IMG/VR virus record: IMGVR_UViG_2718218308_000003 | Span: 1-42,271 of that record | Reading direction: 5' to 3' (one strand) | Origin: a virus | Lineage: Duplodnaviria; Heunggongvirae; Uroviricota; Caudoviricetes | DNA: 42,271 nucleotides | Shown here: positions 32,964 to 33,901 of the stretch, piece after piece | Numbering within the stretch: position 1 is the first letter of the stretch | Layout of the letters: the number at the start of each line of letters is the position of its first letter | The notes under the pieces: model-generated | Databases searched by the model: none | What the model saw: only the letters and a program-made list of their open reading frames with translations | Told to the model about the DNA's origin: nothing | Program-made: the position numbers and the translations under genes

Positions 32964-33901
32964 CCCCTGAATCCTGCCGGGATCTGGCTGTAGTCCACGT
33001 TGTCGTAACTGGATTTGAAGTACGGGTCTTCGCGTTTTTCGGTGTACGTGCTAACGGACGGTGATAAGCGCAGGGAAAGCTCATCCCATTTTTCCCGCAA
33101 CTTCGACGGGCTGAGCACGTTACGGCACCAGAACGGATCGCGGCTGACGCGGCTGTACATCTCGCAGATTTGTTTGTGAGTACGACCATCCTGCACACAC
33201 ATCAGGCGAATTTCGTTTGCCCAAGCTGTCCAGTTCGGTTCTTTGGGACGAACCACCTCGCCGTCACATTCGGCGGCTTGCTCGTACAGGGCGATGATTT
33301 TTTTCCAGAGCCACTGTGCGCAGGTCAAATCATCCTGCGTTCCCCACTGGCGCTTTTTAGGGCTGAATACAACCGCATCAGGATGGCGAGTTAAAAAATC
33401 CTGTTCATCCGTCTGCGTGTCCGGTTGCGAAGCGTCCGGACGAGAAGGTTTTTTATCTGACGGATCATGTTTTGATTTTACTGACGGATCCCCGCCAGAT
33501 TCTGACGGGTGAAAACCCGCTTTTTTGCCAGATTTCGACGCATCAAATTTTGACGGGTCAGATTTTGATGCGTCAGATTTTGACGGGTCAGAATCTGACA
33601 GTTGAGAAAATGCCGCTGCCTGAAGCTTCGCAACGTTAAGCTGATAAACATTCGACGCATTGCGGTTACCCTGGCGACGCGCCTTACGCGTTAACCAGCC
33701 TTCTGCTTCCAGCCGTGCGATAGCCGTCCTGACGGTACTCATCCCCGCGCCAATCTGACGGGCAATAGTTTCAATTGATGGCCAGCACACACCTTCGTCA
33801 TTACTGAAATCAGCCAGGCGGGCCATAATTGCCACGCTGGATAATTTCATGCCTGATGCAGCGCAACCATCCCATACATAGCCGGTTAATTTAGTGCTCA
33901 T
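32960..33901 (-). CDS. Replication initiation protein (lambda O-like, iteron-binding), containing an internal origin
   Basis: N-terminal winged-helix region, then a Ser/Asp/Lys pentapeptide-repeat linker encoded by tandem 15-bp DNA repeats, then a C-terminal domain; located downstream of the cro/cII-like genes. Confidence 0.65.
   Translation of the reverse strand: MSTKLTGYVWDGCAASGMKLSSVAIMARLADFSNDEGVCWPSIETIARQIGAGMSTVRTAIARLEAEGWLTRKARRQGNRNASNVYQLNVAKLQAAAFSQLSDSDPSKSDASKSDPSKFDASKSGKKAGFHPSESGGDPSVKSKHDPSDKKPSRPDASQPDTQTDEQDFLTRHPDAVVFSPKKRQWGTQDDLTCAQWLWKKIIALYEQAAECDGEVVRPKEPNWTAWANEIRLMCVQDGRTHKQICEMYSRVSRDPFWCRNVLSPSKLREKWDELSLRLSPSVSTYTEKREDPYFKSSYDNVDYSQIPAGFRG
33456..33605. repeat. 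Iteron array (putative phage replication origin) inside the O-like gene
   Basis: Tandem 15-bp units of the type GATTTTGACGGGTCA / GATTTTGATGCGTCA, with at least five consecutive units at 33531-33605 and degenerate copies upstream. Confidence 0.6.

Follow-up and report, generated by a model that had tools for sequence, protein, structure and literature searches.

A predicted replication origin, laid out like ori-lambda, inside the initiator gene of an SfII/SfIV-like prophage

Tandem repeats within a coding sequence pose the question of whether selection keeps the DNA or the peptide that it encodes. That question is raised by the replication initiator gene of a tailed phage (Caudoviricetes), whose DNA we analysed over 42,271 nucleotides (IMG/VR record IMGVR_UViG_2718218308_000003, positions 1 to 42,271; hereafter the window). 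An earlier note on this DNA had proposed that repeats in the gene are the iterons of a replication origin, embedded in an O-like gene as ori-lambda is embedded in O. The comparison holds for relative position, the element described here spanning codons 98-161 of the initiator and the four iterons of lambda codons 117-145 of O. We consider that this linker region, at about 33419-33610, is quite probably the phage's origin of replication, built like ori-lambda. The gene, its DNA-binding domain and the parts of the element are as follows.

32960-33901, minus strand: replication initiator gene (313 amino acids), the intact counterpart of E. coli K-12 CPS-53 yfdO.
33611-33901, minus strand: N-terminal winged-helix DNA-binding domain (amino acids 1-97), the presumed iteron reader.
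About 33419-33610: whole cis-acting element in the inter-domain linker (codons 98-161), under DNA-level purifying selection; predicted origin.
33527-33599: five iteron-like units of 15 bp, reading TCA-RAW-TCT-GAC and then one variable codon on the coding strand, each of them a quasi-palindrome, (C)GTCARAWTCTGAC(G).
33492-33508: 17-bp near-palindrome CCGCCAGATTCTGACGG (coding strand CCGTCAGAATCTGGCGG), the family's most conserved site.
33443-33490: two 24-bp A/T-rich repeats, GATCCGTCAGTAAAATCAAAACAT and GATCCGTCAGATAAAAAACCTTCT (coding strand), with a GATC each; candidate DNA-unwinding region.
33419-33442: G+C-rich junction CGTCCGGACGCTTCGCAACCGGAC (coding strand; S/C-P-x-A-x-Q-P-D), at which the module of N-terminal domain plus repeats meets exchangeable C-terminal domains.

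Repeat finding recovered the array of at least five consecutive 15-bp units that had been claimed, as five in-register units. Tandem Repeats Finder described 33529-33592 as 4.3 copies of a 15-bp period (81% matches) or as 2.1 copies of a 30-bp period (88%). The 12-mers TCARAWTCTGRC (coding strand) start at 33587, 33572, 33557, 33542 and 33527, in 15-bp steps, and again at 33494; the unit at 33587-33599, the first in the array, is perfectly palindromic over 13 bp (GTCAGAATCTGAC). At up to one mismatch the 42-kb window has 11 matches to the motif, of which 9 are inside the 106 bp of 33494-33599, and shuffling the window gave 1.6 expected matches and never as many as 11. A scan of the window found the motif neither near the early promoters nor elsewhere in the prophage. 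The degenerate copies that had been reported beside the array are also real and lie at lower coordinates, as the 17-bp near-palindrome and the two 24-bp units.

Because the 15-bp period is a multiple of three, the array is also read as tandem D-x-S-K-S pentapeptides, and translation of the repeat region (SDSDPSKSDASKSDPSKFDASKSGKKAGFHPSESGGDPSVKSKHDPSD; SDSDPSKSDASKSDPSKFDASKS..FHPSESGGDPSVKSKHDPSD) confirmed a DPSKS/DASKS-type linker. The five units encode S-D-S-D-P-S-K-S-D-A-S-K-S-D-P-S-K-F-D-A-S-K-S and, together with the 17-bp palindrome, occupy codons 101-137. The likeness of this linker to the pentapeptide-repeat proteins of Pfam, with their beta-helix fold, is in name only; the units gave no match to the PF00805 profile at E <= 0.01 in a Pfam search. 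A 30-bp super-period, in which CCG and GCA codons alternate, is present in the window; it is not kept in relatives and we regard it as not meaningful.

Relatives were gathered by scanning one genome per species, which found the same N-terminal domain, at 52-100% identity, in 80 loci of Escherichia, Shigella, Citrobacter, Klebsiella, Enterobacter, Kosakonia, Yersinia, Rahnella, Pantoea, Providencia, Proteus and other genera. All usable relatives carry a linker of the D-x-S-K-S type. Codon usage was then compared over 73 related loci from the Enterobacterales, as the fraction of the major codon at columns with a shared amino acid. This fraction is 0.89 in codons 98-161 (64 columns), 0.54 in the N-terminal domain (91 columns) and 0.61 beyond codon 162 (Mann-Whitney, p = 3.6e-21 for the linker against the N-terminal side and 8e-13 against the C-terminal side), and it reaches at least 0.95 in 31 of the 64 linker columns compared with none of the 91 columns of the N-terminal domain. 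The boundaries of the element, about 190 bp in all, were set by this profile of synonymous constraint. Lysine in the repeats is encoded by AAA in 245 of 245 cases (68% elsewhere in the genes) and serine by TCN in 610 of 617, against a 37% share of AGY among serine codons elsewhere. Single codons serve for valine (GTA, 69/69), phenylalanine (TTT, 65/65) and serine (TCA, 57/57 and 62/62), and throughout the non-repeated block F-D-P-S-E-S-G-G-D-P-S-V-N-S-K the residues Phe, Asp, Glu, Ser and Val each keep one codon in 57-70 of 70 loci.

The way in which the DNA varies points in the same direction. Inside the 15-mer the first two bases of the 'x' codon change freely (CCG, GCA, ACG, GGG and so on) and the other codons do not vary at their third positions, the opposite of what conservation driven by the protein would give. 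A 57-nt anchored block of the linker has higher nucleotide identity to the related locus L009 than the N-terminal domain has (0.86 versus 0.73) and lower amino-acid identity (0.77 versus 0.82), so that recent transfer of the linker cannot explain the pattern. In phiP27 and in one further locus (L078), a 1-nt deletion and a later compensating insertion move TTTTSACCCKTCAGAATCTG to another frame, where the product is VLTLQNL or VFTRQNL in place of GFHPSES; the DNA itself has hardly changed. As judged from these alignments, the repeats are under selection at the level of the DNA, independent of the encoded peptide, and the linker peptide seems to be carried along by the DNA sites and to tolerate change.

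An overlapping gene was considered as a source of the synonymous constraint and rejected, the best alternative frame being open in only 27 of 69 loci. No promoter-like site for an internal sigma-70 promoter was present on either strand of 32900-34300. A search of the element against Rfam returned no family, only sub-threshold matches to miRNA hairpins that are due to the palindromes, and no DnaA box (TTWTNCACA) lies near the element, the single match in the window being at 24721. The single-sequence structure model of the protein was poor (mean predicted local distance difference test score, pLDDT, 44) and predicted residues 102-163 as coil with low confidence.

The earlier note had also held that repeat number is constrained by both DNA and protein. 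The part concerning the DNA stands, and this constraint dominates; the part concerning the protein does not, as the phiP27 frameshift alters the peptide and keeps the DNA. Compared across related prophages, copy number proved flexible and not tightly fixed: the 12-mer occurs 313 times in all, with 0-8 copies per gene (mode 4-5), a spacing of 15 bp in 202 of 236 gaps and one shared reading frame for 312 of the 313 copies. Among about 1,950 E. coli genomes nearly all have the linker length of the window, and the rare variants are longer by 15 bp or 45 bp, always whole units (5 or 15 amino acids). Such variants become readable as gains of iterons and not as protein variation.

The conserved element is wider than the tandem array and takes in the palindromic site and the two GATC-bearing A/T-rich repeats. 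Along the direction of transcription, the five units (33599 to 33527) are followed by a short A-tract spacer, the 17-bp near-palindrome, the 24-bp repeats and the G+C-rich junction. In the near-palindrome, CAGAATCTGG was found in 63 of 74 loci and codon choice hardly varies along F-D/H-P-S-E-S-G-G; L085 and L087, the relatives that diverge most, have a perfect palindrome, CCTCCAGAATCTGGAGG, at the 17-bp site. Between array and palindrome, the plus strand (antisense to the gene) has a terminator-like hairpin at 33506-33519, CGGGTGAAAACCCG then CTTTTTTGCC, which on the coding strand is an A6 tract with a small hairpin and is apparently not conserved as a hairpin in relatives. At the other end, synonymous sites are still frozen in the junction (codons 154-161), which may mark a boundary for recombination or else the outer limit of the origin.

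Both 24-bp units contain CCGTCAG, and the least stable 30-mer of the gene, 33451-33480, lies directly downstream of the repeats. Their GATC sites start at 33463 and 33487, one opening each repeat (33463-33466 and 33487-33490), and 61 of 69 loci retain two or more GATC sites in this 60-nt stretch, a density of about 33 per kb compared with 3.6 per kb in the rest of the gene. Along the codons GAT-CCG-TCA-GTA-AAT-TCA-AAA, one codon is used in 90-100% of loci, and the 24-bp block is duplicated in phiP27 and L078. The window carries a Dam gene (32502 to 31816, minus strand), and most loci have a gene for a Dam-type methylase in the 1.7 kb that follow the initiator. The GATC pair kept in most loci and the Dam gene near the initiator together suggest that the unwinding region may be under methylation or SeqA control, like oriC and P1 oriR.

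Mosaic relatives separate the N-terminal domain and the repeats from the C-terminal part of the protein. The N-terminal domain plus repeats is joined to four unrelated classes of C-terminal domain: lambda-O-like (14 loci), Phg_2220_C (PF09524; 56 loci), phiP27-type and L085-type. In the converse arrangement, mEp460_4F5 has its C-terminal half in common with the window, with 96% nucleotide identity from the gene end up to about 33459, and a different N-terminal domain that has no Pfam match. At the same place it has other repeats (L007 3495-3649), namely five 23-bp quasi-palindromes of the CATCAGGTCACTTTGACCCGATG type and then three 12-bp A/T-rich ones (TATTCTCTGTAG), and these look like another in-gene origin, separate from the one predicted here and built to the same plan. 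Where the N-terminus has diverged furthest (L085 and L087, 52-53% identity), the array has a 33-bp period around the shared core CCAGAATCTGG. The neighbouring YfdN, Dam and LexA-like genes are present in some loci and absent from others, and the element does not follow them. The repeats are thus inherited together with the N-terminal DNA-binding domain, which is the classical pattern of initiator and origin specificity in lambdoid phages.

The protein itself matches PHROG 391, 'replication initiation O-like' (E = 1e-135), and its gene is 98-100% identical to those of SfII, SfIV and vB_EcoM-689R6. The counterparts in the Shigella phages SfII and SfIV and in several E. coli phages are annotated 'replication protein O / primosomal protein'. 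At least 80% of the gene was found in 1,575 of 5,426 complete E. coli genomes (about 29%). Its N-terminal domain matches Pfam HTH_36 at amino acids 23-70 (E = 4e-11), with weaker matches to GntR, MarR, DnaD_N and RP-C, and the initiator has no match to Phage_rep_O (PF04492) or TIGR01610, both of which are matched by lambda O (PF04492, E = 6e-36). Two features lie beyond the linker.

33071-33406, minus strand: C-terminal domain (amino acids 166-277), by similarity homologous to the C-terminal domain of lambda O.
32963-33007, minus strand: C-terminal tail YDNVDYSQIPAGFRG, the last 15 codons, a short motif common to initiators with unrelated C-terminal domains.

BLASTP against lambda O gave E = 7e-26, the convincing part being amino acids 170-277 against lambda O 175-270; amino acids 70-277 have 31% identity to lambda O across 216 aligned residues, and tblastn with amino acids 166-277 found 39% identity to lambda, 933W, H-19B and phi80 gene 15. 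By these similarities the C-terminal domain is a true lambda O homologue, and the initiator is only half a lambda O, as its C-terminal domain fits and its N-terminal domain does not. The tail (...VDYSQIPAGFRG) has the motif IPxGFRG/S, which recurs in lambda-O-like, Phg_2220_C-type and L085-type initiators; a second type of tail, WxxIW(K/Q)E, is present in two classes of C-terminal domain. The conserved tail may be a short motif on which a host replication protein docks. A tie between tail type and a downstream DnaC- or P-like gene was looked for among the related loci and discarded, as no clean pattern emerged. The yfdO gene of the K-12 prophage CPS-53 matches the window from the 3' end of the gene to about 33668, keeping the whole repeat element and the C-terminal domain and lacking most of the N-terminal DNA-binding domain; it is probably an origin without its reader.

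How would a helicase reach such an origin? That no separate loader gene is evident downstream had been noted before, together with the suggestion of searching the rest of the prophage for a DnaC/P-like or helicase gene. A search of all six frames of the window agreed on the first point and on the second found nothing similar to lambda P, phiP27 DnaC or the phiP27 helicase. Neither do the annotations of SfIV and of an identical E. coli prophage include a loader or helicase. By annotation and six-frame search the initiator is the sole replication-initiation gene of the phage, and the next gene downstream of it encodes a PerC-family regulator, so that an O/P module of the lambda kind is not what the window has. 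In the 1.7 kb downstream of the initiator, two of the 73 related loci have a P homologue, six have a DnaC-like gene and the other 65 show no gene of either kind; phiP27 carries both DnaC and a helicase.

Initiator binding, unwinding of the A/T-rich stretch, origin firing and the route of helicase loading are what we infer from this layout. The N-terminal winged-helix domain would bind the 15-bp quasi-palindromes (GTCARAWTCTGAC plus a 2-3-bp spacer) and the adjacent 17-bp palindrome, and the resulting nucleoprotein complex would destabilise the adjoining A/T-rich pair of 24-bp GATC repeats. The lambda-O-like C-terminal domain, perhaps with the tail, would then bring the host helicase. As P, DnaC and DnaB are all missing from the phage, this would presumably be DnaB together with the DnaC of the host, and the obvious inference is that the C-terminal domain recruits host DnaB-DnaC directly. 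The linker peptide would be a flexible spacer, and the DNA sites would dictate its sequence, not the reverse. A wider scheme of P-independent, lambda-type initiation, which we offer as a tentative and rather doubtful extension, is that a lambda-O-like or Phg_2220_C-type domain with an IPxGFRG or WxxIW tail recruits host DnaB or DnaB-DnaC to an in-gene origin whose two-GATC unwinding region is controlled by Dam and SeqA. Such control, if true, would explain why a phage Dam gene so often stands beside the initiator.

Several observations weigh against reading the linker region as an origin of this kind. With an A+T content of only about 68%, the A/T-rich stretch is much weaker than that of lambda, and the surrounding 5 kb contains less stable DNA elsewhere. 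The C-terminal domain of lambda O acts via P, whereas no partner for its homologue was found in the window. Iterons usually stand about two helical turns apart, and a spacing of 15 bp, about 1.4 turns, is out of the ordinary for them; the binding unit can be taken in two ways, as the 13-bp palindrome or in the TGACNNNTCA reading. Published binding or origin activity for the SfII/SfIV/CPS-53-type family was not found in the searchable literature, nor was a description of an origin for SfII, SfIV, SfV or CPS-53; the SfIV genome paper speaks only of a 'replication module' and does not mention an origin. Plasmid records were considered as a sign of autonomous replication and discarded, the matches in PLSDB being misassigned chromosomes or prophage fragments (for example 15-16-kb records with e14-like genes).

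Constraint at the DNA level proves a function and not which one, and the element might therefore be bound in cis by the initiator or another protein without being an origin, as an array for autoregulation or copy control ('handcuffing'), as a roadblock to transcription, or as an array to which some other early phage protein binds, for example a PerC-like, LexA-like or CII-like one. The weakness of the A/T-rich region would fit such a role, and plasmid iteron arrays are known to do copy control as well. We nevertheless think it unlikely: the element tracks the N-terminal domain of the initiator instead of the regulators nearby, it is placed and ordered as ori-lambda is, with the A/T-rich stretch after the repeats, the motif is absent near the early promoters and from the rest of the prophage, and no other candidate repeat cluster was noticed in the replication region, although no search was aimed at one. 

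Readings that dispense with a protein-binding DNA element fare worse. A low-complexity linker made by slippage, with the DNA repeat as a functionless by-product, would account for a period that is a multiple of three, for the single frame of 312 of 313 copies, for copy-number change in whole units and for the predicted coil (from a low-confidence model). It is highly improbable, in that synonymous sites are frozen while amino acids vary, the frame-shifted copy preserves the DNA and not the peptide, and non-repeated flanking blocks are constrained equally; were very recent transfer of one linker invoked to rescue it, amino-acid change would still exceed synonymous change. An element acting in RNA, through mRNA structure or an antisense RNA, is suggested by the ability of the palindromic units to form hairpins, by the sub-threshold Rfam matches (30.7 bits for miRNA models whose gathering score is 97) and by the terminator-like hairpin on the plus strand. 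There is, however, no compensatory pattern: position 4 of the unit is A in 71% of copies and its palindromic partner C in 86%, giving an A-C mismatch. With no promoter-like site on either strand and with copy number and spacing varying freely, we hold an RNA element to be very unlikely. Retention of the sequence as a recombination 'boundary' for the exchange of phage modules draws on the mosaic breakpoints at the 3' edge of the element (about 33419-33459), where the four C-terminal classes are joined; it would account at most for the 24-bp junction and not for position-specific conservation over 190 bp with palindromes and a tandem array, and is scarcely credible as an explanation of the whole.

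The surroundings of the initiator have the gene order typical of a lambdoid early-right operon. Along the direction of transcription, genes for a CI-like repressor, a Cro/YdaS-like protein, a CII-like protein and DUF4222 precede the initiator, and PerC-like YfdN, Dam, a LexA-like protein, RusA, KilA-N, DUF968 and Q follow it. The gene at the position of lambda P (32469-32963, minus strand; 164 amino acids) has a start that overlaps the initiator stop; the C-terminal half of its product is of PerC/ANR type and the N-terminal half matches PHROG 23071, with weak MarR-like matches. As this gene is absent from many related loci, its PerC-like protein is unlikely to be an obligatory replication partner. 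A prophage of E. coli 30EVA2 (L008) has an initiator gene identical to that of the window; it adjoins a truncated fragment of a tRNA-dihydrouridine synthase gene and has, near one end, iss (a serum-survival lipoprotein) and a gene for a YafO-family toxin. Other tandem repeats of the window lie at 1327-1399 (33 bp, 2.2 copies, 92% matches) and 4156-4198 (about 16 bp, 2.8 copies).

If the reading of the linker region as an origin is right, a probable origin has been located for the very common SfII/SfIV/CPS-53-like prophages, which have relatives across the Enterobacterales, and annotators would be able to mark it. The locus also offers a clean natural example of a binding-site array dictating the sequence of a protein linker, in which the frame-shifted copy of phiP27 is a built-in control, and the family would be a tractable system for asking how a lambda-O-type domain loads a helicase without P. 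No principle is changed by this; origins within initiator genes have been known since lambda.

Of the known systems, ori-lambda is the one to which the element compares most directly. In lambda and Shiga toxin (Stx) phages the origin lies inside gene O, with four or six iterons and an A/T-rich region just downstream, and in Stx phages extra iterons add 13 amino acids, so that iteron number alters the length of O and dual coding of iterons and linker is documented (PMC7466680). The window resembles this arrangement in having repeats midway along the initiator gene, where it encodes the inter-domain linker, with palindromic units and a less stable stretch next along transcription, in its homologous C-terminal domain and in the lengthening of the protein by added units. 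It differs in its N-terminal domain, which is HTH_36 where lambda has Phage_rep_O, in units that are 15 bp apart and in frame, giving a true peptide repeat, where those of lambda are spaced 20-24 bp, in a weak A/T-rich part with two conserved GATC sites, and in having no P gene. In lambda O, the N-terminal domain binds the iterons and the C-terminal domain binds P.

Weigel and Seitz reportedly distinguished, in FEMS Microbiol Rev in 2006, 'initiator-solo' modules with one initiator gene and no phage helicase or loader, and the window phage is alike in having a single initiator and neither of the other two. Theta plasmids (pSC101 RepA, R6K pi, RK2 TrfA and P1 RepA/oriR) have winged-helix initiators that recruit the host helicase without a dedicated loader, and at P1 oriR the unwinding region depends on GATC methylation. 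With these plasmids the window has in common a winged-helix initiator and tandem direct repeats; plasmid iterons differ in lying outside the rep gene, in their length of about 17-22 bp and spacing of about two turns, and in usually being accompanied by DnaA boxes, of which the window has none nearby. SPP1 (G38P, with oriL inside gene 38) likewise has origin repeats inside its organizer gene, and the C-terminal region of the window initiator has about 40% identity over some 60-90 amino acids to Bacillus phage 'replisome organizer' proteins and also matches PHROG 4880. Unlike the window phage, SPP1-type phages bring a loader and a helicase of their own (G39P and G40P). Set beside these systems, the in-gene layout itself is well known, and what is new here is only the SfII/SfIV/CPS-53 family as a further case and its missing helicase loader; the points particular to it are another DNA-binding family, an in-frame 15-bp period, the frameshift control, a conserved GATC pair and the lack of a loader.

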